Below are positions 20,597 through 60,325 of a stretch of DNA of 64,000 nucleotides, piece by piece. The notes under the pieces were generated by a model, which had not been told where the DNA came from, searched no databases, and worked only from the letters and a program-made list of their open reading frames with translations. The stretch comes from Elusimicrobiota bacterium (lineage in GTDB: Bacteria > Elusimicrobiota > Elusimicrobia > Elusimicrobiales > UBA9959). The stretch lies in NCBI GenBank assembly GCA_009773155.1, contig WOVA01000007.1, positions 1,108-65,107 on the forward strand, written 5' to 3'. A program made the translations under genes and the position numbers. Position 1 is the first letter of the stretch. Each line of letters begins with the position of its first letter.

Positions 20597-22252
20597 ATGA
20601 CATTTTCCGAAGAAAAAAAACGCCCGGCACCGGGCCTCCTCGCGGCCGGAACAGGGCGGCATTGTCCGCAGTCGGTGCCGGGAGCACTGCGAGCGGCCGC
20701 GGCCGGAGCGGCGGGGCTGTTGTTCTTTGTTATCGGCTTCCGGGAGCCCTATTCTTCGGACGAATTCTGGTTCCTCGTCAAAGCCTGGGACTTCCTGGGT
20801 TCCGGCTCGCTCGACGGCGAGTCGATGATACACCCGCCCCTCTATCTTCTTCTCACGTCCGGGCTCGTCGCCGCCTTCGATTCGCCCCTGGCCGCCCGTC
20901 TCACGGGCCTGCTCTGCTGCGCCTCGGCCGCGCTCCTGATAAAAAAAGCGGGCGAGGCGGACGGTGACGCGCGCCGCGCGGCGGCCGCGGCCGCCATGCT
21001 GGTCCTCTCGCCCGCGTTCATAAAGGCGGCCCTCGTCCTGGACACGGACAACACCCTGATCACCCTGGGAGCGGCCGCCATGGCGCTGGCGGCGGTCAGA
21101 GAACGGCGTTTCCTCCTCTCCCCGATATTTTTCTTCTGCCTGTGGTCCAAACTGACGGCCTGCGTGCCGCTGGCGGCCGCTTTCCTCGTGCACGCGGCGT
21201 GGGAGGACAGGCGTTCCGGCGGCGGCAGAACGCGAAGTACCGCCCTGGCCCTTTCCGCCGGCCTGGCGGCCTGGGCGCTCGCCTTTTACCTCTTCTGCAT
21301 GCTGAACGGCCTGCCTTTCGCCGCGCCGTTCGAATATATGTACTCGGCCGTTTTCTCCAAGAGCGTCGCCCCGGCTTCGGCGTATTATCAGGTTCTTCAG
21401 GCGGCGCTCTGGGCGGGCCTTCCCCTCTGCGGCCTCTTCCTGCTCGGACTGCCGCGAACCTTCACCGGAACCGCCTCGTCCCTGGACAGGCTTTCGCTGT
21501 CCGTATGCGCGATCATAGGGGTCGGTTACATATTCGTGGGAGGAACCCCGTTCGGCTTCCCCAAGTTCCAGATCCCCGCCTGGCCGTTCATCTGCTGGCT
21601 GGCCGCCGGCGCCGCGCTTAAAGCGCCCGGTCCGGCGCTATGGGCGGCCGCCGCGGCCGCGCTGGCCCTTTACGCCGGGGACCCGCTCTATTCTCTCAGG
21701 TTCTCGCTGAGGGAAGCGCTGGCTTCGGGAGCGGATCTCTCCCTGCCGGCGGCGAAGCTCGCCGCGCAGCTCGCGCTTCCGCTCCTCCCCGCCGCCGCGG
21801 CCGCGGTCCTCTTCAGGAAGACGCTGGGAGCCAGGCGGGCGCTGGCGGCCGGACTGACCGCAGTATTCGTCGGACAATCCCTCGCGCTTAACGCGCTCCA
21901 GGCCGGGTCTTATAACAGCGCCTACAATTACGGCGGAAAAGGGCTGGCCGGCGCCGCGGCCCTGGCCGGAGAGGCCCTCAAGGACGGAGGAAAAGTTATC
22001 GCTCCTCTCGAGATCTACGGCACGCTGCGCCTTTCCGGGCTGAAGCCTGAGAGGCTCCCCAACTCCCTGTGGGAAAGGGATCGCCTGCTTGCCGCGGCGG
22101 CCGACGCTGATTACAAGGGCGTGGTATACGGCATCCCCTCCAACACGGTGGAACAGGTGCGCCTGCTCAGGCATCCCGGGACGGTCTCCCTGTTCGGCGC
22201 GGAGGGCTGGCGCTTCGAACGGAGAGGAACGTACGAGATATGGACGAGATGA
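20597..22252 (+). CDS. GT-C fold membrane glycosyltransferase (ArnT/PMT, GT39/GT83-like)
   Basis: 551 aa, more than 10 predicted TM helices. N-terminal loop EPYSSDEFWF resembles the GT-C acidic loop. Overlaps the downstream GT2 by 13 nt. Confidence 0.7.
   Translation: MTFSEEKKRPAPGLLAAGTGRHCPQSVPGALRAAAAGAAGLLFFVIGFREPYSSDEFWFLVKAWDFLGSGSLDGESMIHPPLYLLLTSGLVAAFDSPLAARLTGLLCCASAALLIKKAGEADGDARRAAAAAAMLVLSPAFIKAALVLDTDNTLITLGAAAMALAAVRERRFLLSPIFFFCLWSKLTACVPLAAAFLVHAAWEDRRSGGGRTRSTALALSAGLAAWALAFYLFCMLNGLPFAAPFEYMYSAVFSKSVAPASAYYQVLQAALWAGLPLCGLFLLGLPRTFTGTASSLDRLSLSVCAIIGVGYIFVGGTPFGFPKFQIPAWPFICWLAAGAALKAPGPALWAAAAAALALYAGDPLYSLRFSLREALASGADLSLPAAKLAAQLALPLLPAAAAAVLFRKTLGARRALAAGLTAVFVGQSLALNALQAGSYNSAYNYGGKGLAGAAALAGEALKDGGKVIAPLEIYGTLRLSGLKPERLPNSLWERDRLLAAAADADYKGVVYGIPSNTVEQVRLLRHPGTVSLFGAEGWRFERRGTYEIWTR
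20647..20698 (+). repeat. ~52-bp GC-rich intragenic repeat, copy A (forward)
   Basis: cggaacagggcggcattgtccgcagtcggtgccgggagcactgcgagcggcc. 4 mismatches to copy B by my count. Confidence 0.9.
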
Positions 22253-22950
22253 AACCCGGACTTTCACTGATAGTCCCTTTCTATAACGAGGAGGCCTGCG
22301 CCGGGCCGGTAGTGCGCGGGACGCTGGAGGCGCTGGAGGAGGCGGGCCTGGATTTCGAGCTGATCCTGGTCGAGAACGCGTCCTCCGACGGGACGCGGCG
22401 CATACTGGAGGAGTTCTCCGGCGACCCGCGCGTCAGACTGCTGAAGCTGGAGAAGAACATCGGCTACGGGGGAGCCGTCACGGAAGGCCTGGCGGCGGCG
22501 GCCGGCCGGCACCTGGGCTTCACCTGCGGCGACGGGGAGATAGATCCGCGCGACGCGGCGAAGGTCTGCCGCATAGCCATATGCTCGGGAGAGCCGGTAT
22601 GCAAGGCGCGGCGGGTGTATCGCCTGGACGGCGCCTGGAGAAAGTTCCTTTCGGTCGCGTATCACCTGCTGGTGGGACTGCTTTTCAGGGTCCACGTGAC
22701 CGACGTCAACGGCTACCCGGTCATGATGACGCGGGAAGCGTACGAGGCGATAGGCCTGACTTCCCGCAACTGGGTCTTCAACGTGGAAATGCTGGTCAAG
22801 GCCCGGCGGCTGGGGTTCGGCATCCTCGAGCCGGATATCCTCCACAGAAAGCGGGCCGGCGGGCGTTCCCATGTAAGCCTGGGCACGCCTTTCGTTTTCC
22901 TGGCCCAGCTGCTGCGCCTGCGGTTTTCCGACTTCGGCGCCGGCAAGTAG
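22240..22950 (+). CDS. GT2 polyprenyl-phosphate glycosyltransferase (ArnC/GtrB/DPM1-like)
   Basis: LSLIVPFYNEE...LILVENASSDGT...EKNIGYGGA. 236 aa. Confidence 0.85.
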   Translation: MDEMKPGLSLIVPFYNEEACAGPVVRGTLEALEEAGLDFELILVENASSDGTRRILEEFSGDPRVRLLKLEKNIGYGGAVTEGLAAAAGRHLGFTCGDGEIDPRDAAKVCRIAICSGEPVCKARRVYRLDGAWRKFLSVAYHLLVGLLFRVHVTDVNGYPVMMTREAYEAIGLTSRNWVFNVEMLVKARRLGFGILEPDILHRKRAGGRSHVSLGTPFVFLAQLLRLRFSDFGAGK

Positions 22951-22961
22951 CGGTCTTCCGG
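22795..22961 (+). repeat. 167-bp direct repeat, copy 1 (native 3' end of the GT2 gene plus 11 bp)
   Basis: 162/167 identical to 24610..24776 by my base-by-base comparison. Confidence 0.9.
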
Positions 22962-23163: not shown

Positions 23164-24342
23164 TCAGACAAGGCCGGAAAGAAATTTTCCGACGCTTATC
23201 ACGCGCACACCGTCCTGCACAAAATCCGTCCCCGGCGCCCGCACAACCTGATATACGAACGGCACCGAAAGCTTTGAGGCAAAATATCTCAGCGGTTTAG
23301 AAATGCTCTTTGCGGAAGATTTTACCTCCACGGCGAACCACGGTTTATTATCCAGCGTAACCAGGAAATCCGCCTCCCGCTGCTCCCTGTCGCGCAGAAA
23401 ATATAGGCCGGCCCTATACCCCTCCACGTCAAAAAGGTAATCCACGAACTTCAGCAGGTGGGAAGCTATTACATTTTCAAACCGGGGGCCGTCATCGGGC
23501 GCTTCCGACCAGTCCCAGAGGTAAAGTTTAGACTCTTTCTTAAGAGCTTTTATAGCGGAATTCTGGTAAGGATATACGCGAAAATGGTAATAAAACCGCT
23601 CAAGCACATCCACCCATAAAGCCGCCGTCCGGTGGTTCACCGAAAGTTCCTCCCTTATCGAATTTATAGACAGGACAGCTCCGACCTTTTCCGGCAACAG
23701 CGCCACAAGCGCCTGTAAAGCGGAAAGGTCCCTTATGTTCTCAATATCCCGTATATCCTCCTTGACAAGCAAATCGGCCCTTTCATTGTGCCATCTGCGC
23801 AGGTGTTTGGCGCTGCCTTTTAGATAGATTGCGGGAAAGCCCCCTAATTTAAGCAATGCTTCAAAAATCTCCGCTCCTTTTGCGCCGACGTTGTGGAAAT
23901 TTAGCGCCTCAAAAGGCTTACCGGCAAAGCCGAACCCGGAAATTTCCGCCAATGAAAGCGGGTGCAGGCGATAATGGTGATAGCGGCCTAAAAGCGAATC
24001 ACCGCCTTTCCTGTACACATTAAGCCTCGCGCTTCCCGTCACAAGTATTTTTACACTTTCCCTGTTTTTATCGTAGACGCCCTTAAGATAGTTTTTCCAC
24101 TTTTTATATTTATGGATCTCGTCAAAAATCAGCAGCTCTTTCTCCGGTTCAAAACGTCCGGCAAGCATATTACGCCTGTCTTCGCCGTTATCCCAGTTCA
24201 AATACTGCGTTTTGAGCGGGTAAAATTTCTTTCCCAAGCCAGCCGCCAGCGTGGTTTTTCCCACCTGCCGGGGCCCGGACAGAAAAACCATTTTCTCTTT
24301 CAGGTCTGCAAGTATATCCCGCTCCAGGTAGCGGCCCAGCAT
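23164..24342 (-). CDS. AAA+ ATPase (AAA_14 + DUF4143-type)
   Basis: Walker A GPRQVGKTT, Walker B LLIFDEIH, 392 aa. Lower GC than the flanks. Confidence 0.85.
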   Translation of the reverse strand: MLGRYLERDILADLKEKMVFLSGPRQVGKTTLAAGLGKKFYPLKTQYLNWDNGEDRRNMLAGRFEPEKELLIFDEIHKYKKWKNYLKGVYDKNRESVKILVTGSARLNVYRKGGDSLLGRYHHYRLHPLSLAEISGFGFAGKPFEALNFHNVGAKGAEIFEALLKLGGFPAIYLKGSAKHLRRWHNERADLLVKEDIRDIENIRDLSALQALVALLPEKVGAVLSINSIREELSVNHRTAALWVDVLERFYYHFRVYPYQNSAIKALKKESKLYLWDWSEAPDDGPRFENVIASHLLKFVDYLFDVEGYRAGLYFLRDREQREADFLVTLDNKPWFAVEVKSSAKSISKPLRYFASKLSVPFVYQVVRAPGTDFVQDGVRVISVGKFLSGLV

Positions 24343-24609: not shown

Positions 24610-24776
24610 GTCAAGGCCCGGCGGCTGGGATTCGGCATCCTCGAGCCGGATATCCTCCACAGAAAGCGGGCCGGCGGGCGTTCCCACGTTAGACTGTGCA
24701 CGCCTTTCGTTTTCCTGGCCCAGCTGCTGCGCCTGCGGTTTTCCGACTTCGGCGCCGGCAAGTAGCGGTCTTCCGG
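24610..24776 (+). repeat. 167-bp direct repeat, copy 2 (orphan duplicate of the GT2 3' end; non-functional fragment)
   Basis: Encodes KARRLGFGILEPDILHRKRAGGRSHVRLCTPFVFLAQLLRLRFSDFGAGK* with no upstream gene body. Ends 1 bp before the stop codon (24778-24780) of the AT-rich GT gene. Confidence 0.9.
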
Positions 24777-43672: not shown

Positions 43673-46600
43673 TTATTTCTTGCCCTTGTACTCGGCTATC
43701 GCGCGGGAGAGCTCCATGCGCATCTTCTCCAGCTCGGCGGACTTGCGCGCGTACTCCTTGTCCAGCTCCAGCCGGCGCGACTCAAGATCCCTTTCCCTGG
43801 CGGCGTCGGCCCGCCGCATCTCGCCGATTTCCTGGTCGATGGCCGCGGCCCTTATGGACAGCTCGCCCTGGCGGGCGTCCAGTTCCAGCTGTTTGCGCCC
43901 GTAGACCGCCTCGCGTTCCTTGAGCGTCCTGTCCTTGCTGGCGGCCAGCTCCTCCAGCCGCGCCAGGCGCTCCTCGTAATCCTTGCGGGTCTGCCCGACC
44001 TGCCTGAAGTAGCCCTCTTCCAGCTCCAGTTGCCGTTTCTGGAACTCGGCTATGACGTCCTTGAACTTCTCCTCCTGCCCGGCCAGCTGCCTGACCACCG
44101 TCTCGGCGGCCTCCTGCCTGTGCGCTATAAGCTGCCGCTCCAGGTCGGCTATCTTCAGGCCGGCGGCCTCGGCGTATTTCTCGCGCTTGCCGAGCTCCGC
44201 CAGCAGGCGGTCCTTCTCGGCGGCGGAGGCCTCGCGGGACCTGGCGAGCTCCAGTTCATAGTCGTCGCGCATGGAGGCTATTTCCTCCTCAGCCATGGCG
44301 ATCTTCCTGACCAGGCCCTCCGTGACCTTCTCTACTGCGGCCCGGGTGCGGGCGTCCAGCTCGGCGGCGTGGGATTCGCGCAGGGACAGCGTCTCTTCCT
44401 TGTGCTCGCGCACCTTCTGCATCAGCTCGTCGAACACTTTGGCGGCGCGTGTACCGGACGCGGCAGCCTCCCCGCGCAGCGAGGATATGCTGGCGCGCAG
44501 AGCCTCGTTCTCCTCGTGGAGCTGGGCGAGGCGCACCTCTACGGTCTTCTCGCTCTGGCCGGACTTGCGGGAGTACTCGGCCTCGAGAGCCGCGCGCAGC
44601 TGCGCTGTCTCATCCTCCAGCTCGGCCCGCCTGGCGTCGTAGCGGCTCTCGAGCTCGGCAACCTTTTCCGAGAGAGCGGAACTATCCTCGAAGGCATGCC
44701 TGGCGCGGTATTCGCGCTCGGTTCTGGCCGCCGCGTCGCGGGCTTCGGCCAGGTCGTTCTCCAGCCTGGAAACTTTATCTTCCAGGGCGCCCTTAACGGA
44801 CTTTAGGTCCTCCAGGGCGCCGGCCAGGGCGGCGGTGCGGACCCCGACCGCTTCCTCTACGCGGGCCTGGGCCTCCTTCTCGGCCGCGGCGCGGACCTCG
44901 CCCAGCTCGCGGCTGAACCGGGATTCCGCGGCGATCAGCTCCTCGCCGGCCCGGCGGTTGGCCTCCAGCAGCGAACGCACCTCGGCGCGGGAAGCTTCGG
45001 CGCTCTTTTCGGCGCCGGACAGGAGCCCTTCCAGGCGTTCTTTTTCCGCCGACAGCATGGAACGCTGATCGGCCAGGGCTTTTTCGAATTCCCCCTCCCT
45101 GGCTTTTACAGCGTCGGCCGCTGCCGAAAGAGATTTCTGTTTCTCGGCGGCCAGCTCAGCCTGCATTGAGCGGACCATGGATTCGAGCTCCCCGGCTCTT
45201 CGGGCGGCGGCGGCGGACATATCGGCGAAACGTTTGTCCGCCAGGGATTCCGATTCTTTTGCCCGGGCCTCGGACGCCGCCCGCTCCCTGGCGCGCGAAG
45301 CCTCCGCTTCCGCCAGCGCCTTATTGAAAAGTTCCTCTTTCTCCTTTATCCGGCGCATGACCTCCGCGTTCAGCTCGTCGCCGGCCGCGGCAAGTTTAGC
45401 GCCCAGTTCTCCGGTCCTGACCTTCTCCGCCTCCAGCGCGGACTTAAGTTCTGACTGCTCCGCGGTCAGCGCCTCCGCCTGTGCCGCCTTCTCCCGGCCG
45501 AAGCGCTCTTTCAGCTCCGCCTCGCGGGCCTCGTATTCGGAGCGGTCCTTGGCCCTGAGGGCCTCCATCTCCGCGAGGCTGCGGGAGAAGAAATCTTCTT
45601 TCTCCCTTATAAGGCGCATGGCCTCCGCGGAGCGCTCTTCCCCTGAAAGCGAGAGTTTTTTCTCCAGCTCGTACGCCTTGAAACGTTCGGCCTCCAGGGC
45701 CGCTTTCAGGGCGTCACGGTCGGCGGCGTAGCGGGAATCCAGCTCGGCGGCCTTCCTGCCCAGGGCCGTCTCGTAAGAGGAGGCCAGTTCGGCCTCGCGC
45801 GCCGCGAAGGCGGCGGCCGCGGACTCCATCTCGGCCACGCGCGCGCGGAAAAATTCGTCTTTTTTGGCCAGCTGCCGCATGACCTCCTCCGAGGTCCTCT
45901 CCTGCACCGAGGCCATAGAGTTCTCCAGCTCGCGAATCTTCTCCTGCGCGTTCCGGAACTGGTCTTCGCGCACGCGCTGCTCGTCCGTCAGGCGGGCCCG
46001 TTCCACGGCCCAGGTAGATTCCAGCGACCGCAGCTGCTGCGCGTGCTCGGTGTCCACGGAACGTATCCTCGCGTCGAAAGACGTTTCCAGTTCGGCGCGG
46101 AGGCGGCGGAAATTCCCGTCCACCTCGTTCTTTTTGGAGAGGAACTCGCTCTCGAGCTCCTTGCGCCGGGCTTCGATCCCCCCCTCGGAACCGCGCACCG
46201 ACTTTTCCAGCATCTCTATGCGGGACTTAAGCTCGGCTTCCTTGGACTTATAGTTCTTCTCCAATGCGGTAAGGCGGGACTGGTGCTCGGAGTCCACCTC
46301 GGAGCGGAGAGAGTCGTATTTAGCCTGCGCCTCGCTGAGGCGCGCGGCGTACTGGGTCTCTACGTCCAGCAGGCGCTGGTTCCAGCGCTCTATGACGCCT
46401 TTCTGCTTACGGTCGAGTTCCTCGAACTTGGCCTGGTACTCGTCCTCCAGCGCTGAGCGGAGCTGGTCGAGGCGGTTCTCCTTGCGCAGCAGCTGCTGCA
46501 GGTCGAGCTTGCCCTCGCCCAGCAGGGACATGGTGGCTTCCAGCTTGGAGTAGAAACCCTCTTTTTCATCGAGGGTCTTGGAGCGGCTGCGGAAAGATTC

Positions 46601-46953: not shown

Positions 46954-47376
46954 ATGCTCAGGAAAAAACGCTTCTATTTCTTCCTCCTGCTGACCTGCGC
47001 CGCGGCGGCGCTTTGGCATTTCCACCCTTATCTTTTCAGGGCTTTTTTCAGGGTTTCCGGCACGGTGGACCTGGCCCCGGGTTCGGCCGGGTTCCGGCCG
47101 AAGCCCAATACCATGCTCTTCATAGTCGCCCGGGACGAGGGAGGGGTCCCGTTCGCCGTACTGAAGGTCATAAACCCATCCTTCCCGCTGTCTTATTCGA
47201 TGGACAGCTCCGACCTCATCCTGCCCGAACTGCTGCCGCTCAGACTCCGGCTGGAAGCCTTTCTCAATACCCACGGCGAGATAGGCGCACCGAGGCGCGG
47301 GGACCTCTACGGTTCGCTGGACCGGGAAGTATTCCTGGCCGAGCAGGACTGCGATCTGCTGCTGGACCCAGTGTAG
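46954..47376 (+). CDS. Hypothetical protein with N-terminal TM; C-terminal part faintly resembles the CcmH/CcmI C-terminal domain
   Basis: MLRKKRFYFFLLLTCAAAALW. ...MLFIVARDEGGVPFAVLKV...PLSYSMD...RLEAFLNTHGEIGAPRRGDLYG. The stop codon TAG lies inside the inverted repeat of the element downstream. An alternative ATG is at 46909. Confidence 0.45.
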   Translation: MLRKKRFYFFLLLTCAAAALWHFHPYLFRAFFRVSGTVDLAPGSAGFRPKPNTMLFIVARDEGGVPFAVLKVINPSFPLSYSMDSSDLILPELLPLRLRLEAFLNTHGEIGAPRRGDLYGSLDREVFLAEQDCDLLLDPV

Positions 47377-47637
47377 TGTACCGCAGATATCTTGACTTTT
47401 GGAGGCCCGGATTTGAGCCGAGTTCAAGGCGCGACGAACGCGCATACCGGGGGTCTGTAAGTGAGGAGCAACGCAGAAATCGGCCAAAGACGGGCCTCCC
47501 CAAGGGGGCCGGGCGCTTTTTGGCTGAAACTGCGTCAGTCGTCGCTCAAATAGCAAAACTATAGTTCGCTCCTCCTTCCTTGTTTCGCTCATAAAATCGC
47601 CAGGCCAAAAGCAAAGCTATCTGCGGTACACTACACT
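47370..47637. repeat. 268-bp long-palindromic MITE-like element with perfect 20-bp terminal inverted repeats
   Basis: Left agtgtagtgtaccgcagata (47370-47389), right tatctgcggtacactacact (47618-47637). The two arms are diverged inverted copies of one ~125-nt unit, which is homologous to 57437..57593. Confidence 0.85.
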
Positions 47638-52355: not shown

Positions 52356-52425
52356 ATCAAGGAGACAGCCGGGGCCCCGCCGTGAGGGTTCGCGGGGGCG
52401 CCTCCGGCATCGTTCTCCTTTTGTT

Positions 52426-52496
52426 CTCCCGGGCATGGATTTGAACCATGTCTAACCGCGTCAAAGGCGGTTGTGCTACCGTTACACCACCCGGGA
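52426..52496 (-). tRNA. tRNA-Gln (anticodon UUG), CCA not encoded
   Basis: Hand-folded cloverleaf. Acceptor TCCCGGG/CCCGGGA, D stem GTGT/GCAC, anticodon stem ACCGC/GCGGT with loop CTTTGAC, T arm CATGG-TTCAAAT-CCATG. 71 nt. Confidence 0.85.
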
Positions 52497-52510
52497 ATAA
52501 ATCGGGCCTG

Positions 52511-53937: not shown

Positions 53938-56099
53938 TCGGCGGCCGGCGCGTGAGTGAAGAGCGGATTCTCGGCGGGAATGTTGACCTGCCGCTGGTCC
54001 ACCGTCAGCTTCAGCCTGGCGGAGGGGATCTTTATCTCTATCTCGCCCGGCAGCCAGTACCCCTTGCGGGCGAAATAGCCGCCGAAGGAAAGAGTCATAC
54101 CCTCGCCGGAATCAAGGGACCTGAACCTGACGCCGGTCTCGTCGAGTACGGCCTTCTTTTTTCCGGACCTGAGCGCGGAGGAGCGCCTGCTCCCCTCGAA
54201 GGCCAGTCCCGGTTCCGAAAAAAAAGAGCCGGAGAAAAAATACCTCATTTCGGCGGCCAGCGCGGGAGCCCAGTAGACGAAACCTTCCCGGACCTTGCCG
54301 TCCAGCGCGGCCGGCTCGTCCATCTCGACGGTACCGCCCCGGACCTTGATCTTCCAGAGCGGCGCCAGCAGCGGACCGGTTATGGTGAACGTGAATTCAT
54401 CCGGGGCGATATAATTGATGACTCCGTCGAATTTAAGGCTCCGCCCGAAGGCCGACACTTCCAGCCCGCAGAACGAGGCGTACCCGGAATCCGACGGCAG
54501 GAACCGCGCCATCGAGCCCGCCAGGAGGGCGCCGGCCTCGGCCGGCGGCAACTTTCCCAGTTCGGCGAACAGCCTGCCGCGGACGGCGGCGAGCCGTTTC
54601 GCGTCCGTCTCAAGCTGCAGCGAGACCGTCCAGGCGGAGACCGCCTCGCGGGCGCGGCCCAGCGCCGAGTAGGCGTCGCCGACATGCTCCCAGATGACGG
54701 GGTCGGCGTTTATCAGCCGGGACGCCTCCAGCAGTTTTTCCAGCGCTTCGGCATGCAGCCCTTTTTTATAGAAAACCCAGCCCAGCGAATCGACATAGGC
54801 GCCGTTGCCGGGCTCGAGCTCCACCGCGCGGCGGATGAACCGCTCCGCCTCGTCCAGCTTCAGGCCCCTGTCGGCCAGCGAGTAACCGAGATAATTGAGG
54901 ACCACGGCATTGTCGGGTTCGGAGGAGAGTATTACCCTGAACTGCTCCTCGGCGGCGGCGATGTTCCCTTCCCTTTCCGAGACTATGGCGTACTGCATCC
55001 TGGCCTCGCGGTAGCCCGGCGAGGAAACGACGATCTTCTTCATGAGTTCCAGCGATCGCTTCGTCTTCCCGGTATCGTCCAGGCCCAGCGCCAGGAAATA
55101 GGCTATCTCGTCGTTCTTGGGCCACCTTGAGTGCGACTCCTCCAGCAGCCTGACCGCCTTGTCGGGCTGCCTCGCCTGGCTGTAGTAGTAGGCCAGCCGC
55201 ATGACCAGCCCCGGATTCTCCTTCAGCCCGGCGGAACGCTCCATATAGGCTATAGCCGAGGCGTAATCGTCGCGCTGCTCGGCTATCAGCGAAAGCCAGA
55301 AGCAGGAATCCGGGTCGGACGGCTCCAGCGCGTTGGCCTTGAGGAAATATTTTTCGGCGCGGGCGAGATCCCCCACGGCGGGTCCGGCCAGCAGCGCGCC
55401 CAGGTGGTTGATCAGTTCCCTGTTGGAAGGGTCGAGATCGGCCAGTTCCTCGTACTGCCCGACGGCGGCCGCGGTGTCGCCGCTGACCTCGTAATGATTG
55501 GCCAGCGCGAAGCGCGGCTGGAGGTAGTAGGAGTCCTCCGCGGCGGACTTGAGCATATACTCTTTCGCGAGGTCGTTGCGGCCGCGCATGCTGTGCAGCG
55601 TGGCGATCTGGAAATAGGTCTCGGCCGACGCGTCGGGCCGCAGCCCGGCGTAGCGCTCCAGGTATTTTATGCTGGCGTCGGGGTCGCGCGTGCTGTTGGC
55701 GCCGGCCAGCTGGTAGACGGCCTCGTCGTTCTCCGGCTCCAGTTCGACGGCCTTCGAGAAGGCCTTTGTAGCGCCGTCTATGTCGTTCTTCGCCCAGCGC
55801 ACGTTGCCGTAGAGTATCCAGTTATCGGCCGAGGACGGGTCGGCGCCTACTATGTAGTCGGCCCAGGCCTCGGCCTCGGCCACGCGCCCTATGTGAAGCG
55901 CCAGGTTGAGCGCCTGGCGGCGCACGTAGACCGACTGCGGGTCCAGCAGCATGGCGGCCTTGTACTCGTTGAGCGCCGCGTCGTAATCGCCTTTGCGCTC
56001 GCGCGACACCCCGGCCATGAAATGCAGGTAGGCGGATTTGTCGGCCGCGGCCGCGGCCGGAGCGGCCAGCAGCATCAAGGCGAGCGTAATGTTTCTCAT
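53934..56099 (-). CDS. Secreted TPR-repeat protein with C-terminal LolB-like domain
   Basis: Signal peptide MRNITLALMLLAAPAAAA. About 12 TPRs. The last ~190 aa resemble the LolB strand pattern (FGRSLKFDGVINYIAPDEFTFTITGPLLAPLWKIKV...LSFGGYFARKGYWLPGEIEIKIPSARLKLTVDQ). Confidence 0.75.
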   Translation of the reverse strand: MRNITLALMLLAAPAAAAADKSAYLHFMAGVSRERKGDYDAALNEYKAAMLLDPQSVYVRRQALNLALHIGRVAEAEAWADYIVGADPSSADNWILYGNVRWAKNDIDGATKAFSKAVELEPENDEAVYQLAGANSTRDPDASIKYLERYAGLRPDASAETYFQIATLHSMRGRNDLAKEYMLKSAAEDSYYLQPRFALANHYEVSGDTAAAVGQYEELADLDPSNRELINHLGALLAGPAVGDLARAEKYFLKANALEPSDPDSCFWLSLIAEQRDDYASAIAYMERSAGLKENPGLVMRLAYYYSQARQPDKAVRLLEESHSRWPKNDEIAYFLALGLDDTGKTKRSLELMKKIVVSSPGYREARMQYAIVSEREGNIAAAEEQFRVILSSEPDNAVVLNYLGYSLADRGLKLDEAERFIRRAVELEPGNGAYVDSLGWVFYKKGLHAEALEKLLEASRLINADPVIWEHVGDAYSALGRAREAVSAWTVSLQLETDAKRLAAVRGRLFAELGKLPPAEAGALLAGSMARFLPSDSGYASFCGLEVSAFGRSLKFDGVINYIAPDEFTFTITGPLLAPLWKIKVRGGTVEMDEPAALDGKVREGFVYWAPALAAEMRYFFSGSFFSEPGLAFEGSRRSSALRSGKKKAVLDETGVRFRSLDSGEGMTLSFGGYFARKGYWLPGEIEIKIPSARLKLTVDQRQVNIPAENPLFTHAPAAE

Positions 56100-56599
56100 G
56101 TCTTCTCCCCGGGGGAGAGCGCCCTTCTCATCAGCAGCGCGTCCTCCGCGTTATTGTAGAACTTAGGCCGGCGGCCTTCCACCTCGAAGCCCGCGGCGGC
56201 GTACAGGGCCCTGGCCGGCGCGTTATTTTCCCCCACCTCCAGCGTGATGGAGGCGCAGGCGCTCTTGCGCGCGTACTCGGCGCATTTGCCCAGCAGAGCG
56301 CGCGCGGCGCCGCGGCGCAGGAAGGCGGCCGAGACCGCCAGCGAATTGATCTGCGCCTCGGGGCGGACTATCCAGAAATTGATGAAGCCCGCCGGCGCGC
56401 CGGCCGGTCGTAGAACTCCCGGCACCGACCGCGGCAAATGCCGCCCTGATCCGTCCAGCTCGGCGACCAGCGTCACCGACGAGGGATTTGCCAGTTCCTC
56501 GCGCAGGCCCTTCTCCCCCCAGGCCGGGTAGCCCGGCCAGGCGGCCTCTATGGCGGCCAGCGCGGGGATATCCTTTTCGAAGGCGCGGCGCACCGTCAT
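56096..56599 (-). CDS. rimI: Ribosomal-protein-alanine N-acetyltransferase (GNAT), carrying an in-frame repeat insertion
   Basis: Start reassigned to MTVRRAFEKDI (ATGA overlap with the tsaB stop). GNAT motif A LRRGAARALL. Canonical tsaE-tsaB-rimI context. Confidence 0.85.
   Translation of the reverse strand: MTVRRAFEKDIPALAAIEAAWPGYPAWGEKGLREELANPSSVTLVAELDGSGRHLPRSVPGVLRPAGAPAGFINFWIVRPEAQINSLAVSAAFLRRGAARALLGKCAEYARKSACASITLEVGENNAPARALYAAAGFEVEGRRPKFYNNAEDALLMRRALSPGEKT
56402..56453 (-). repeat. ~52-bp GC-rich intragenic repeat, copy C (reverse)
   Basis: ggccggtcgtagaactcccggcaccgaccgcggcaaatgccgccctgatccg. 4 mismatches to the reverse complement of copy B. Confidence 0.9.
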
Positions 56600-57447
56600 T
56601 TTTTGCGTCCCCGGGCTTCGGCTTTGGCCCTGGCGTCCAGCTCGTACTTGGCGGGCTTGAGATAGAGCGGCTCCAGCGGCCCGCCGAAAATTTCCCCGGC
56701 GGCCAGGACGGCCTGAGGCGTGACCATAGAGATGGCCGGAGGGGCCTTGGGGCAGCCGGCCGGCGCGAGCGAGTAGATCTCCGGTTTCTCCTCGGCGTCG
56801 GCTACGCACAGGTCGGGCTCGGCCGAGGCCAGCAGGTCGCGGGCTCCCGCTTCGGGCAGCCAGACCGGAGCGCCGAGCGGCTTAGGCGTTCTCCCTCCGT
56901 CGGACGCGCGGAAGAACTGCACGAAATATTCTTCCTTGAAAGCGTGCAGCAGGACAGCAAGTTTCCCGCCGCGCGGAACAGGGCGGCATTTGCCGCGGTC
57001 GGTGCCGGGAGCACTGCGACCGGCCGGGAGCAGCGGCGCCGCGGCCAGGGCGAGAACTTCGAAGACGGTCACTCCACGCGCGCGGCAGCCCAGCAGCAGT
57101 TCCAGCGAGCCGGCCAGCGTGAGGCCTATCCTGATGCCGGTGAACCGGCCGGGCCCGCGCACGGCGCAGACCCCGGAGATATCGCCAAGACCCACCCCGG
57201 CCTGTTTCAGCAGCCGGTCCAGCGAAGAAAAAAGCAGCCTCTCCTGGTTGGGCTCCTTTACGCTGAGGGAATGGAACTTCCCCGCGGCCGGATCAGGGCG
57301 GCTATGTCCGCAGTCGGTGGCCGGTCGTATAACTCCCGGCACCTGTGGCGCCGGAGGCGCTGTTCCGCCGGGAGCCCTGCGAGCGGCCAGCCCCAGCTTG
57401 AGGCGGCTGCCGCTGGTGCATATGGAAAGCTCCAGAGCCTGTTGCAC
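56596..57447 (-). CDS. tsaB: tRNA t6A37 biosynthesis protein TsaB (YeaZ), carrying two in-frame repeat insertions
   Basis: GPGRFTGIRIGLTLA. The N-terminus ALELSICTSGSRLKLGLAA fits the TsaB IDTS region. Putative GTG start at 57447, since the upstream part of the track ORF overlaps tsaE. Confidence 0.8.
   Translation of the reverse strand: MQQALELSICTSGSRLKLGLAARRAPGGTAPPAPQVPGVIRPATDCGHSRPDPAAGKFHSLSVKEPNQERLLFSSLDRLLKQAGVGLGDISGVCAVRGPGRFTGIRIGLTLAGSLELLLGCRARGVTVFEVLALAAAPLLPAGRSAPGTDRGKCRPVPRGGKLAVLLHAFKEEYFVQFFRASDGGRTPKPLGAPVWLPEAGARDLLASAEPDLCVADAEEKPEIYSLAPAGCPKAPPAISMVTPQAVLAAGEIFGGPLEPLYLKPAKYELDARAKAEARGRKK
56974..57025 (+). repeat. ~52-bp GC-rich intragenic repeat, copy B (forward)
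   Basis: cggaacagggcggcatttgccgcggtcggtgccgggagcactgcgaccggcc. Confidence 0.9.
57289..57388. repeat. Composite 100-bp copy D: forward repeat split by a nested reverse-oriented copy (57320..57367)
   Basis: cggatcagggcggctatgtccgcagtcggtg | gccggtcgtataactcccggcacctgtggcgccggaggcgctgttccg | ccgggagccctgcgagcggcc. Confidence 0.8.
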
Positions 57448-57593
57448 AAACCCCGATTCTGCTGCAATTGCGGCTTTTGGCCTGCGGCTTCGTTGCTCGT
57501 CGCTTACAGGCCCAACGGGCCTGCTCGTTCCTCGCGCCTCGTCTCGGCCACAAAATCCGCAATTTCGCGACGAAAGCGGTTTGTGCAACAGGC
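57437..57593. repeat. 157-bp long-palindromic element with 16-bp perfect terminal inverted repeats, in the tsaE-tsaB spacer
   Basis: gcctgttgcacaaacc (57437-57452) and ggtttgtgcaacaggc (57578-57593). The interior aligns by eye with the arms of 47370..47637. Confidence 0.85.
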
Positions 57594-57596
57594 TCT

Positions 57597-58097
57597 TCAC
57601 TTCTTTTTTCTGCGCCATTCTTTCTCCATGCGCTCCAGCGCGGACAGGTGTCCCTTCCCGGCGGCGGAGGCGCGTATCTCCCGGCGGTCGCCGCCGGCCA
57701 GCCTGAACTCCAGTTCCAGCCTCTCCGCGCCGTAGGCGGTGTCCTTTATATCCTCGCCCCATTCCACGGCCATTATCCCGTCGGAACGGCCGGCGTAATC
57801 GGCGAAGCCGGTGTTCTCCAGTTCGCCGGGGCCCAGCCTGAAAAGGTCGAAATGAAAAACTTTCAGCCGGCCGCGATAGGTCCTTAGTATGTTGAAGCTG
57901 GCGCTGACCGGCGAATCCTTCGATCCCAGCGCCGCGGCCAGGCCTTTGACGAACTCCGTCTTACCGGCGCCTATCGGCCCGGTAAGGACCAGGCATTCCC
58001 CGCCGCGCGCCGCGCGGGCCAGCGCCGCCGCCAGCAGCCGGGTCTCCGCCGGGAGGGCCGTCTTAAAAATGCTCAAAAACGGGGATCTCGCCGCCAT
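57597..58097 (-). CDS. tsaE: tRNA t6A37 biosynthesis ATPase TsaE (YjeE)
   Basis: Walker A LTGPIGAGKTEFVKGL. ...FHFDLFRL... Confidence 0.85.
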   Translation of the reverse strand: MAARSPFLSIFKTALPAETRLLAAALARAARGGECLVLTGPIGAGKTEFVKGLAAALGSKDSPVSASFNILRTYRGRLKVFHFDLFRLGPGELENTGFADYAGRSDGIMAVEWGEDIKDTAYGAERLELEFRLAGGDRREIRASAAGKGHLSALERMEKEWRRKKK

Positions 58098-59019
58098 AAT
58101 CCTCCACCCCGACGCCGCGGCCCTTCACCGCCTCGCCCACGCGCAGCGCGCCGGGCAGCAGCCGCCGGACCAGCGCCTCTTTCGACGGGCGGCAGGTGAA
58201 GACCAGGCCGTAATCCTCGCCGCCGGCGAGGGCGTACATCCGCCAGTCCTTTTTTCTGAGCGCGGCCCAGCGCCGCAGTTCCGGGGAGCAGACCGCTTCC
58301 GGAAGCCGGGCCTTCACCCGGCAGCCCGAAAGCCTGGCGATGATGCCGAGACTGCGGTAGAGCCCGTCCGAGTTATCCAGCATGGCCGAAGCCAGCCCGC
58401 GCCGGCCTATCAGCGCGCCCTCGGCCAGCATGGGACGGGGGCGCCAGAAAGCGTCTATGAGCGCGGCCCTGCCGCGGCGGGCGGAGCCCGACATCAGCAG
58501 CTCCAGCCCCGCGCGCGCCAGGCCCAGCGGCCCGAGCGAATAGACCAGGTCGCCCGGGCGCGCGCCGTACCTGGTGACGAAGCCGCGGCATTCGCCGAGC
58601 ACGGTCATGGAAAAATGCTTCTTATCCGAGCGGGCGATATTGCCGCCGGCCACGGCTACGCGCCAGCGCCGGGCTTCGGCCCGCAGCGCCGTTATGAACC
58701 GGCGGGCCCAGCTCCCGCTGGCGGCGCGCGGCAGGCCGGCGGCCGTGAGCAGCGCCAGCGGCCTCACATCGCCCATCGCGGCCAGGTCGCTGAGGTTAAT
58801 TCGCAGCAGCTTGCCGGCGATGAGTTCCGGCTTCGAAAAAGAGTCCAGGAAGTGGGCGCCCTCGCACATCTCGTCTACGGTGGCGACAAGGCGATAACCC
58901 GGGCGTACCTTGAGCACAGCGGCGTCATCGCCTGGCCCCAGCAGGAGCGGCCCGCCTGCGCCGGGGAAGGCGCGCTCTATGCGCTCCAGCAGCGCGTCCT
59001 CGCCGCCGGCCTTCTTCAT
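58063..59019 (-). CDS. thiL: Thiamine-monophosphate kinase
   Basis: GPGDDAAVL, VATVDEMCEGAHF, LRINLSDLAAMG (AIR-synthase-related fold). Confidence 0.9.
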   Translation of the reverse strand: MKKAGGEDALLERIERAFPGAGGPLLLGPGDDAAVLKVRPGYRLVATVDEMCEGAHFLDSFSKPELIAGKLLRINLSDLAAMGDVRPLALLTAAGLPRAASGSWARRFITALRAEARRWRVAVAGGNIARSDKKHFSMTVLGECRGFVTRYGARPGDLVYSLGPLGLARAGLELLMSGSARRGRAALIDAFWRPRPMLAEGALIGRRGLASAMLDNSDGLYRSLGIIARLSGCRVKARLPEAVCSPELRRWAALRKKDWRMYALAGGEDYGLVFTCRPSKEALVRRLLPGALRVGEAVKGRGVGVEDYGGEIPVFEHF

Positions 59020-59900
59020 CTTTCCAGCCTACGGAACGCGGCGGGAAGGGCTTCGACCAGGTCGGTGGCCGTAACGCTCCTGGCGTTTAACCGGCGCGCC
59101 GCGATGGTCCCGGCGAGACCGTGAAGACCTACGCCCAGGCGCGCGGCGCGGCAGCCCGTCTCGGCGGTAAAACCGTCTCGCCGGCCGAGCTGAGCCCAGA
59201 GGCCGCCGATGAAACCGGCCAGCGCGTCGCCGGAGCCACCCTTGGCCAGCTCGGGCCCGCCGAAGGAATTTTTCCAGAGCTTATCCCCGCAGGCTATAAC
59301 CGTGCCCTGACCTTTGAGCACGGCGACGACCCCTCGCGCCGCCAGCGCCGCGGCGGCCCCGGCGCGGTCACCGCGGAAGCCCGGGAAAAGCCTGTCGAAC
59401 TCGCCGGGATGAGGCGTGAAAACGGCGGGGGCCCCGCCGGGCAGGCCTTTCCCTTTCCAACCGGACGCGGCCAGCGCGTTGAGCGCGTCGGCGTCCACTA
59501 CGCAGGGCAGGCGCAGCCCGCGCAGTACCTTTACGGCGAAGTGAGCGGACTTCATCGAGAGCCCGGGGCCTATTACGGCCAGGCCGTAATTTCCGGCGGA
59601 AACTGTTTTGAGCAGGAGCGCCGCGGCGGGCCCGCTGAAAAAATCATTTCCCGGCAGCGGCACCGTCATGGCCTCGGGGACCGCGGCCGCCATCACCGCC
59701 CGCTCGGACTCCGGCAGGGCGACGGTCACCAGCCCGGCGCCGGAGCGCAGCGCGGCGCGGGCGCAGACCACGGCCGCGCCGTTCATACCGCGCGAGCCGG
59801 CTATGAGAAGCAGCCGGCCAAAATCTCCCTTATGCGCTCCGCGCGGGCGGAGCGGAAGAAGCCGCCGCAGGGATGACACAGAGTCGGTCAGGATTTTCAT
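59016..59900 (-). CDS. nnrD: ADP-dependent NAD(P)H-hydrate dehydratase (YjeF C-terminal type)
   Basis: HKGDFGRLLLIAGS, TPHPGEF, GGSGDALAGFIGGL. Confidence 0.85.
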   Translation of the reverse strand: MKILTDSVSSLRRLLPLRPRGAHKGDFGRLLLIAGSRGMNGAAVVCARAALRSGAGLVTVALPESERAVMAAAVPEAMTVPLPGNDFFSGPAAALLLKTVSAGNYGLAVIGPGLSMKSAHFAVKVLRGLRLPCVVDADALNALAASGWKGKGLPGGAPAVFTPHPGEFDRLFPGFRGDRAGAAAALAARGVVAVLKGQGTVIACGDKLWKNSFGGPELAKGGSGDALAGFIGGLWAQLGRRDGFTAETGCRAARLGVGLHGLAGTIAARRLNARSVTATDLVEALPAAFRRLER

Positions 59901-60324
59901 TTTCGCCAGGCCAGCGCCGCGGCGCAGGCGTACGCGGAAGTATGAGTGAGGGAAAGTTCTATGCGCGCGCGGGCGTAGCGCCGCGCGCTTATCTTCACCG
60001 AGGGACGTCCGGAACCGCTTTTTATTATCTCGATGGATCTCAACGGCAGGCTCCTGTCGTCGAGCGCCTTTATGACCGCTTCCTTGGCGGCGAAGCGCGC
60101 GGCTATCCGCTCATAGCGGTTGGCCGAGGAGCTGCAGTACTTTATCTCGCCGGGAGTGAAGAAACGGGTCAGGAAGGAAGGCCTGCGCGAGGCCAGTCGG
60201 CGCACGCGCGAAACCTCGACTATGTCTATGCCGAGGCCCGGGACGAAGGCCCGTCGCAGAGCTCCGGGCACCGACTGCGGCAAAAGCCGCCCTGCTCCGT
60301 CCCCGGACTTGCCGCGGGGGCTCA

Positions 60325-60325
<1 letters not shown>
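59897..60325 (-). CDS. acpS: Holo-[acyl-carrier-protein] synthase, N-terminal extension containing a repeat copy
   Basis: GIDIVEVSRV, FAAKEAVIKAL. The ATG overlaps the glmS stop (ATGA). Confidence 0.85.
60248..60299 (-). repeat. ~52-bp GC-rich intragenic repeat, copy E (reverse)
   Basis: ggcccgtcgcagagctccgggcaccgactgcggcaaaagccgccctgctccg. 6 mismatches to the reverse complement of copy B. Confidence 0.85.

Follow-up and report, generated by a model that had tools for sequence, protein, structure and literature searches.

A GC-rich repeat of 51 nt occurs, in six copies, in a 64,000-nt stretch of Elusimicrobiota DNA (contig WOVA01000007.1; hereafter the window), where it lies in frame within conserved genes. 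We consider it likely to be a selfish DNA element, non-autonomous and specific to one lineage, a GC-rich Elusimicrobia clade represented by metagenome-assembled genomes (MAGs) of Elusimicrobiales/Elusimicrobiaceae, which survives where the segment it adds is harmless. Copies are found in both orientations and make use of five reading frames, indicating that the unit is one of DNA and not of peptide. A profile built from the repeat copies and searched against the window matched these six copies alone (E values of 8e-18 to 4e-3; next match E>3), and for an exact 52-mer the number of occurrences expected in shuffled sequence was 0.

Filled and empty sites in the window

An earlier note on this DNA, made from the letters alone, had reported five loci sharing a sequence of approximately 52 bp. 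These loci are present at the coordinates and in the orientations that it gave, the peptides it quoted are correct, and its count of 4–6 mismatches between copies was reproduced (relative to copy B over 52 nt, A differs at 4, C at 4 and D at 6 positions). Its 52nd base, however, is an invariant flanking C, leaving a canonical unit of 51 nt, and the locus it described as composite (57289–57388) is a 48-nt variant of the element nested in an outer copy. The window therefore holds six copies at five sites, comprising four simple copies and one nested pair (Table 1). All six copies, three on each strand, lie in ORFs that remain open through the insert, in agreement with the earlier note. For rimI, tsaB and acpS this follows from empty sites in relatives, whilst copy A probably falls in the N-terminal tail of a GT-C-like membrane protein; compared with P0123, its closest full-length homologue, this tail has about 16 extra aa. 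A protein identical to this GT-C host is present in an NCBI Elusimicrobia MAG.

Four syntenic relative loci (L031–L034), with approximately 82–85 % DNA identity to the window and dS values of 0.34–0.57, allowed filled sites to be compared with empty ones. At rimI (copy C) and at tsaB site 2 (copy B), all four relatives displayed a gap of exactly 51 nt, the latter matched by a 17-aa gap in nine TsaB homologues. The same exact 51-nt gap was found at acpS (copy D) in L031–L033, in which acpS begins at the same glmS-overlapping ATG and encodes 125 aa compared with 142 aa in the window; copy D must therefore lie inside the acpS coding sequence. The nested pair at tsaB site 1 corresponded to a gap of 99 nt (51+48) in L032–L034. 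At this site L031 retained 33 nt of the outer copy, a remnant that includes its unique hairpin-1 loop, TATGT. Judged by its sequence, this remnant is the ortholog of the outer copy, decayed through an 18-nt in-frame deletion, and the copy at tsaB site 1 is common to only two of the five related genomes.

Two further pairs of filled and empty sites came from a comparison of two other MAGs: in uvrA, TamC13-45 has an insert of exactly 51 nt that is lacking in Ess09-09, and upstream of an HhH-GPD gene it is Ess09-09 that has one, again of exactly 51 nt, and TamC13-45 that lacks it. Presence and absence also differed among close relatives at the window sites, with gene order and omega unchanged. 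Since the syntenic relatives show clean gaps of 51 or 99 nt, the inserts are derived and not ancestral.

The presence/absence polymorphism of rimI, tsaB and acpS among relatives is what the earlier note had proposed to look for by aligning orthologues, and it bears on the possibility, which that note itself had raised, that the segments are ancestral or are artefacts of assembly, and on that of binning artefacts. These ideas are refuted and retain practically no probability. We found nothing in their favour; more than 100 TsaB homologues lack the inserted segments, as do the rimI, acpS and tsaB genes of the four syntenic relatives, and TsaB homologues with 75–85 % identity are 229–244 aa long, without the 17-aa and 33-aa segments, compared with 283 aa in the window. 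Different samples, assembled independently (ENA and Logan), contain the same inserts, as does the NCBI Elusimicrobia MAG, and the inserts are therefore no artefact of a single assembly.

Table 1. Repeat copies, host genes and other features of the window
Feature	Position	Strand	Description
Copy A	20647–20697	+	51 nt; sense, frame S1; AGTGRHCPQSVPGALRAAA; probably in N-terminal cytoplasmic tail of GT-C-like membrane protein
GT-C-like membrane protein, 551 aa	20597–22252	+	Host of copy A
Copy C	56403–56453	−	51 nt; sense, frame S1; inside rimI; adds 17 aa, SGRHLPRSVPGVLRPAG
rimI	56096–56599	−	Host of copy C
Copy B (tsaB site 2)	56974–57024	+	51 nt; antisense to tsaB, frame A1; adds RSAPGTDRGKCRPVPRG
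Nested pair (tsaB site 1)	57289–57387	+	99 nt, 33 aa; outer copy 57289–57319 and 57368–57387, antisense to tsaB
Inner nested copy	57320–57367	−	48-nt variant; sense to tsaB; placed in outer copy after GTCGGTG; E=9e-11
tsaB from ancestral ATG	56596–57618	−	Four insertions, 315 nt in all (105 aa), 165-nt element included
tsaB as called	56596–57447	−	Start chosen by gene caller, GTG at 57447
Copy D	60249–60299	−	51 nt; sense, frame S1; N-terminal extension of acpS
acpS	59897–60325	−	Host of copy D; ATG overlaps glmS stop
165-nt inverted-repeat element	57432–57596		Directly after tsaE stop, after tsaB codon 7
167-nt direct repeat	22795–22961 and 24610–24776		Two units, 97 % identical
AAA_14/DUF4143 ATPase gene	23164–24342		Bracketed by the 167-nt direct repeat
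Low-GC island	24–32 kb		40–45 % GC
Spaced 40-nt matches	45326–45887		Three matches at exact 261-nt spacing
Inverted repeat	47370–47637		33-nt arms, 91 % complementary; 202-nt spacer
tRNA-Gln (UUG)	52425–52497	−	
AT-rich inverted repeat	52510–52538/52575–52603		29-nt arms, 97 % complementary; adjoins tRNA-Gln

The tsaB gene carries one further insertion that is unrelated to the 51-nt family: a 165-nt transposable element of the miniature inverted-repeat type (MITE), with perfect 19-bp terminal inverted repeats (TIRs), AGAGCCTGTTGCACAAACC, and a DNA fold z score of −8.3. It spans 55 codons, is a multiple of three in length (3n) and is open in the tsaB frame, as such exemplifying the class of MITEs fused in frame to a host ORF. 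It was absent from L031–L034, and no other copy was found in the window or the retrieved loci. The GTG that the gene caller chose as the tsaB start falls inside its 3' repeat.

Genic context, reading frames and host proteins

Thirty-three independent sites were classified by open frames, third-position GC and the presence of Pfam domains on both sides. Approximately 19 were intragenic, 10 lay at gene starts, gene ends or cistron junctions (operon-type junctions in the case of L013a, L012 and L026c) and four were intergenic (L021, L026b, L017 and L009). The claim that the repeat occurs only inside genes is thus not borne out; coding density is approximately 90 %, so six genic copies out of six in the window are what random insertion would be expected to give. 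Genes interrupted in their interior encode UvrA (two copies, one within the DNA-binding domain region), MltA, RsmE (between the PUA and methyltransferase domains), a MacB/FtsX permease (periplasmic domain, antisense), an amidohydrolase, a MobA-like transferase (antisense), an M42 peptidase and a FabA-like protein. With respect to UvrA, we also observed that proteins of this clade are without a segment of about 20 residues seen in Bacillus stearothermophilus UvrA around residues 368–389; in the uvrA gene of TamC13-45 (L018:5585–7999, compared with L020) a 51-nt element is situated exactly at this deletion point, restoring the length.

The copies were not evenly spread. Five of the six in the window fall within 3.9 kb (56402–60299; P ~4e-4), and clusters were also present elsewhere, with two copies in one uvrA gene (L018:6345–6829), three within 2.7 kb of L026 (211–2686) and two within 1.5 kb of L013 (4151–5674). 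Local hopping, or hot spots in certain regions, may account for this clustering.

Relative to the host gene, 20 copies were in sense and eight in antisense orientation (P=0.036). Frame S1 was used by 13 copies, S2 by three, S3 by four, A1 by five, A2 by three and A3 by none. S1 is therefore a preference, not a rule, and the idea that every sense copy is read in one and the same element frame had to be given up, S1 accounting for 13 of the 20. The consensus is free of stop codons in all six frames, but so are 17–28 % of random 51-mers at this GC content, and in frame −3, the only one that no copy uses, 11 of 32 copies have a TGA. Selection for six-frame openness was consequently rejected as within chance at this GC, and with it the suggestion that the repeat had been selected to stay open in both orientations. 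Compatibility with genes comes from the 3n length (51 and 48 nt, and 33 nt in the remnant) together with GC content; special avoidance of stops is unnecessary. Because the unit amounts to 17 codons and is GC-rich enough to be without stops, insertion into a gene would add just a 17-residue segment rich in Gly, Pro, Arg and Ala.

These data also bear on whether the 17-residue peptide might itself be the selected unit, acquired repeatedly as a tag, protease site or interaction loop. The S1 peptide (GxGRxxPQSVPGALRP) is shared by 13 of the 20 sense copies, and when a profile of it was searched against 1.84 billion representative proteins there were two full matches, both in further unrelated proteins, which attests to its rarity. 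Yet the five frames in use yield unrelated peptides, the copies in tsaB, MacB and the MobA-like protein are antisense, four intergenic copies have the same DNA sequence, conservation tracks the DNA stems and not codon positions, and the structural model shows the inserts as disordered coil. A selected peptide is largely refuted by the data on frame and orientation, and we regard it as highly improbable.

Host genes remain under purifying selection. For tsaB, rimI and acpS, comparison of the insert-bearing window genes with insert-free relatives gave omega values of 0.09–0.21, the same as among the insert-free relatives themselves and as in the neighbouring tsaE. An AlphaFold2 model of the 340-aa TsaB (alignment of 107 sequences, mean pLDDT 79) displayed a core with pLDDT >90 that superposes on YeaZ/TsaB crystal structures with target-normalized TM scores of 0.65–0.75. 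The TsaB inserts were all modelled as low-confidence coil between secondary-structure elements: that of site 1 (residues 80–114) between strands 72–79 and 115–121, and that of site 2 (residues 197–218) between helix 185–196 and strand 219–225. The RimI insert occupies what we take to be the β2–β3 turn of the Escherichia coli protein. In the alignment with E. coli RimI (5ISV), it stands directly before the segment matched to residue 47. In AcpS, where the fold begins at residue 28–30, the insert comes ahead of the position at which the Bacillus subtilis AcpS fold starts. Together, the TsaB model and the RimI and AcpS alignments bear out the proposal of loop insertion, in that inserts are placed in loops or terminal tails. 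Copies would persist, we suggest, in surface loops, β-hairpin turns, N- or C-terminal tails and gene junctions, with the hosts remaining functional. If the tsaB inserts are translated, TsaB should contain junction peptides such as LLPAGRSAPGTDR.

Architecture, distribution and spread

From 5' to 3', the unit consists of CGGAACAGG, hairpin 1 (GCGGC/GCCGC), AGTCGGT and hairpin 2 (GCCGG/CCGGC). Mean identity in an alignment of 30 copies was 92 %, with variation at position 5, the hairpin-1 loop (15–19), position 24, the hairpin-2 loop (39–41) and the pairs 34/48 and 35/47. Variation by adenine mutagenesis, of the kind produced by diversity-generating retroelements, was considered and dropped, several A positions being invariant. 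Hairpin 2 (31–35/47–51) displayed compensatory changes at three of its five pairs, giving the stem versions GCCGG/CCGGC, GCCCG/CGGGC (seven copies), GCCGC/GCGGC and GTCGC/GCGAC; 98.5 % of cells were paired, and the covariation score was reached by none of 500 shuffles. A rival stem at 24–28/44–48 was rejected, having zero covariation and a closing pair that is mismatched in 25 of 30 copies. Hairpin 1 (10–13/20–23) was invariant in the 30-copy set, partly because the scan pattern had fixed it. Hairpin 1 is retained in the inner nested copy, although its sequence there differs (GCGCC-TCC-GGCGC) and is 3 nt shorter, and no further copies of this 48-nt variant were found in the window or the retrieved loci.

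The ends of the element, CGGAACAG... and ...GCGACCGGC, contain no TIRs and have CCGG alone in common. No target-site duplication (TSD) was detected in six filled/empty pairs, where the net gain is exactly the element, and flanks that depart from the consensus are not mirrored at the opposite end. A 3-bp duplication of CGG (or GGC) fits rimI, tsaB site 2 and the second uvrA site; it fails at the other three pairs (acpS, L020 and the nested site), and was rejected. The flanks themselves are constrained. On the left, position −3 is G in 23 of 31 cases, −2 is G in 30 and −1 is C in 19, with GGC in 16 of 31; on the right, +1 is C in 31 of 31 and +2 is G in 24 of 31, against a background of approximately 4 % for GGC or CGG. 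The preferred target, GGC^CGG, equals the junction of the element's 3' end (..CCGGC) with its own 5' end (CGGAAC..). A trans-acting enzyme that recognizes the hairpins would move the element, inserting it without staggered cuts, and a recombinase or HUH-type enzyme would fit better than a DDE cut-and-paste transposase.

The distribution of the repeat was determined with a 23-base pattern scanned over one genome per species for 185,579 species. This returned 24 matches in 23 contigs, at a chance expectation of 0.02 to ~1, all in six MAGs labelled Elusimicrobia, Elusimicrobiales or Elusimicrobiaceae with 2–8 matches each; the earlier note had named a lack of further copies as grounds for abandoning its reading, and copies are evidently present. 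JGI metagenomes yielded four loci, three of which duplicate loci of the six MAGs, whilst a scan of viral contigs found no copy and Rfam at a permissive threshold gave no family match. A concatenated six-frame peptide query against a set of 5.8 billion proteins returned nothing, such matches being too short for a database of that size. Solo half-elements that might mark an autonomous parent were not present in the window or the retrieved loci, and we found no description of such a repeat in Elusimicrobia in the literature. The family is narrow in distribution and low in copy number.

Several observations weigh against a selfish element moved in trans. No mobilizing gene or autonomous partner and no Y1 HUH motif (by regular expression) was found in the window and 34 loci, which at ~300 kb cover a small fraction of the genomes. 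Folding energies were not significantly better than those of dinucleotide shuffles (z −0.03 to −2.3), so the case for structure rests on covariation, and that of hairpin 2 may in part (7 of 10 cells) stem from one change inherited by a subfamily. We infer translation of the inserts only from their 3n length, from frames that are open and from the purifying selection to which the hosts are subject. Copies differed by 5.96 mismatches within genomes and 5.89 between genomes, though most sites are unshared; a simple recent burst from a single master copy would not be expected to leave such equality. The copy in mltA, moreover, is identical at 51 of 51 positions in TamC13-45 and WAS_Bin_5, where flanks are ~82 % identical (0.82^51=4e-5). 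It occupies the same codon position in both MAGs (L007:61–117; L026:1010–1066), and the positions that vary in the family are identical as well. Such identity is not what a dead insert decaying neutrally should show, and it too weighs against the reading that we prefer. Taken together, the mltA identity and the flat divergence within and between genomes suggest several long-lived source lineages, and may reflect same-site re-insertion, patch conversion or precise excision; selection is another possible cause of the mltA identity.

Selection would be expected if the repeat were useful to its host at the level of DNA or RNA, whether by binding a nucleoid or repair protein, by acting in mRNA as a structured element that affects stability or translation, or by serving as a signal for recombination. 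We judge this to be quite unlikely. In its favour, copies are approximately 88–92 % conserved in genomes whose housekeeping genes are approximately 80–85 % identical, the orthologous mltA copy is 100 % identical against 82 % in its flanks, the hairpin covaries, and there are the biases towards sense orientation and frame S1 described above. Against these stand the polymorphism of every window site among close relatives with gene order and omega unaffected, the decay of one copy through an internal 18-nt deletion (the L031 remnant), the want of any common genic context (interiors, ends and intergenic positions in both orientations), the negative Rfam result and the small number of pattern matches per MAG.

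Alternatively, no dedicated enzyme might be needed for the repeat to spread: a fragment that forms a hairpin, or a copy in tandem or circular form, could be patched into targets that resemble its GGC...CGG ends, through microhomology-mediated recombination or gene conversion. The target does resemble the joined ends of the element, with junction homology of 1–7 nt (e.g. GACCGGC at the flank and the element end in L020), no transposase was found in the window and 34 loci, the copies cluster locally, and the identical mltA copy in two diverged genomes suggests patch conversion. However, length and end points are exact even where flank homology is slight or lacking (acpS GGA^CTT; GGC^CAT/CAC), and the stems are conserved and covary whilst the loops vary, which points to recognition of structure by a protein. 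Copies in one genome also differ by 4–7 nt, indicating no general homogenization. We therefore hold enzyme-free spread to be unlikely, and a mobile element that is moved in trans remains the reading that we prefer.

A bolder form of that reading, which we put forward tentatively and regard as rather doubtful, is that the repeat represents a previously undescribed micro-transposon, the smallest known mobile element compatible with coding sequence. It would lack TIRs and TSDs, be recognized by its two hairpins, enter mimics of its joined ends by conservative exchange, and undergo precise excision or same-site re-entry; its enzyme would belong to none of the known REP/RAYT, IS200/IS605, IS607 and IS110 systems, unless one of these had been put to a new use. 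Precise excision or re-entry at the same site would explain both the mltA identity and the sharing of tsaB site 1 by two of five genomes.

Neighbouring repeats and comparison with known elements

Other repeats were present in the window (Table 1). The 167-nt direct repeat brackets an ATPase gene and lies at the edge of the low-GC island, which contains genes for glycosyltransferases, methyltransferases and an ABC-2 exporter. The island resembles an acquired cluster for glycan synthesis in which the end of a glycosyltransferase-2 gene has been duplicated; there were no transposases in it, genes of glycan synthesis being present instead. The inverted repeat with 33-nt arms may be a small mobile element, and the three regularly spaced 40-nt matches probably reflect an 87-residue repeat within one protein. 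An AT-rich inverted repeat adjoins the tRNA gene.

In-frame colonization of conserved genes by selfish repeats has so far been regarded largely as a curiosity of Rickettsia, with scattered examples among MITEs. Here, the same outcome is seen in an unrelated, GC-rich and uncultured phylum, with an element one-third the size and of different architecture. The tiny, exact unit and its clean filled and empty sites make it tractable for studying how small repeats without TSDs move, a question that the Rickettsia elements raise too, how much loop insertion essential enzymes can accommodate (TsaB, with 105 extra residues, AcpS, RimI and UvrA) and how inserts seed new protein segments. The inserts also mislead gene callers, as in the alternative acpS and tsaB starts, and inflate apparent protein divergence in MAG annotation.

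The Rickettsia palindromic elements (RPEs) of Ogata et al. (2000, 2002), as summarized in PMC10969869, PMC2229807 and PMC1166351, are the nearest parallel in behaviour. RPEs are 105–146 bp long and form one long stem-loop with ~12-bp terminal inverted repeats (PMC2229807), and they invade conserved genes in frame at permissive positions (PMC10969869, PMC2229807). Most are intergenic, with 85 of the 728 RPEs of Rickettsia felis located in ORFs (PMC1166351). Like them, the 51-nt repeat is restricted to one lineage, enters housekeeping genes in frame at places that the fold tolerates and has intergenic copies. In contrast, the present unit is 51 nt (48 nt in the variant) with two hairpins of 4–5 bp and no TIR beyond CCGG; it numbers a handful to tens of copies per MAG, at least 58 % of them in genes, whereas RPEs number hundreds per genome; and its hosts are free-living or environmental Elusimicrobia of 65 % GC, compared with AT-rich Rickettsia, with no sequence similarity between the elements. 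Because matches occur in Elusimicrobia MAGs only and Rfam gave none, homology to RPE-1 to RPE-10 is very unlikely. The analogy drawn in the earlier note is therefore apt for behaviour, which is RPE-like, but the element is not an RPE.

MITEs with translated ORFs include the 107-bp form of Correia elements, ERIC, YPAL and Coxiella QMITE1 (PMC2229807, PMC5896051). The 51-nt repeat shares with MITEs a non-autonomous character and occasional in-frame fusion to host ORFs, whereas MITEs are 100–400 bp long, fold into a single long stem-loop and carry both TIRs and TSDs, the latter often TA. The 51-nt unit has neither TIR nor TSD and is thus not a classical MITE. Mycobacterial interspersed repetitive units (MIRUs) are repeats of 40–100 bp between the genes of operons, often in tandem, whose small ORFs overlap the stop and start codons on either side. 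The copies L013a, L012 and L026c lie at such junctions; MIRUs, however, are intercistronic and do not enter conserved domains, whilst most copies here are single and intragenic.

Repetitive extragenic palindromic sequences (REPs) are extragenic by definition, typically present in hundreds of copies, often as inverted pairs, begin with 5' GTAG or GTGG and are linked to a REP-flanked gene for RAYT, a Y1 HUH transposase of IS200/IS605-like type. The 51-nt repeat resembles REPs and REPINs in its length of tens of nucleotides, its GC-rich imperfect hairpins and its lack of TIRs and TSDs. As a lead only, its conserved single-stranded GTCGGT 5' of a GCCGG...CCGGC hairpin is reminiscent of the GTAG-GCCGG... 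of E. coli REPs. By definition it is not a REP, in that ~19 of 33 sites are intragenic, there is no GTAG, and no RAYT/HUH motif was found in the window and 34 loci. GTCGGT precedes hairpin 2, and the two hairpins are in direct order. The palindrome-bearing elements of the IS200/IS605 family likewise have hairpins near both ends and no TSD, and they insert 3' of a fixed tetra- or pentanucleotide. The left flank of the repeat is GGC in 16/31 copies, with G at −2 in 30/31, but the constraint on the right flank (+1 C 31/31, +2 G 24/31) is unexpected in that model.

Elements of the IS607 family, which are serine-recombinase transposons, insert at GG, have ends that terminate in GG and cause no duplication (PMC6188088). 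The absence of TIRs and TSDs and the G-rich target (GG at −3 and −2) are similar in the 51-nt repeat, which has GG at its positions 49–50, though followed by C. The likeness of the target to the joined ends would be accounted for if exchange took place over a short sequence that the ends and the target both contain. IS607 elements are, however, ~1.6–2.5 kb long and encode TnpA with or without TnpB, neither of which is linked to the repeat here, and a GG register misfits the rimI and second uvrA empty sites, for which the 1–51 register fits better. We know of no non-autonomous 51-nt derivative of IS607. By analogy, the lack of TIRs and TSDs and a G-rich target that mimics the joined ends would place the repeat closest to conservative recombinase-type transposons, and also near the single-strand HUH systems, with neither fitting in detail.

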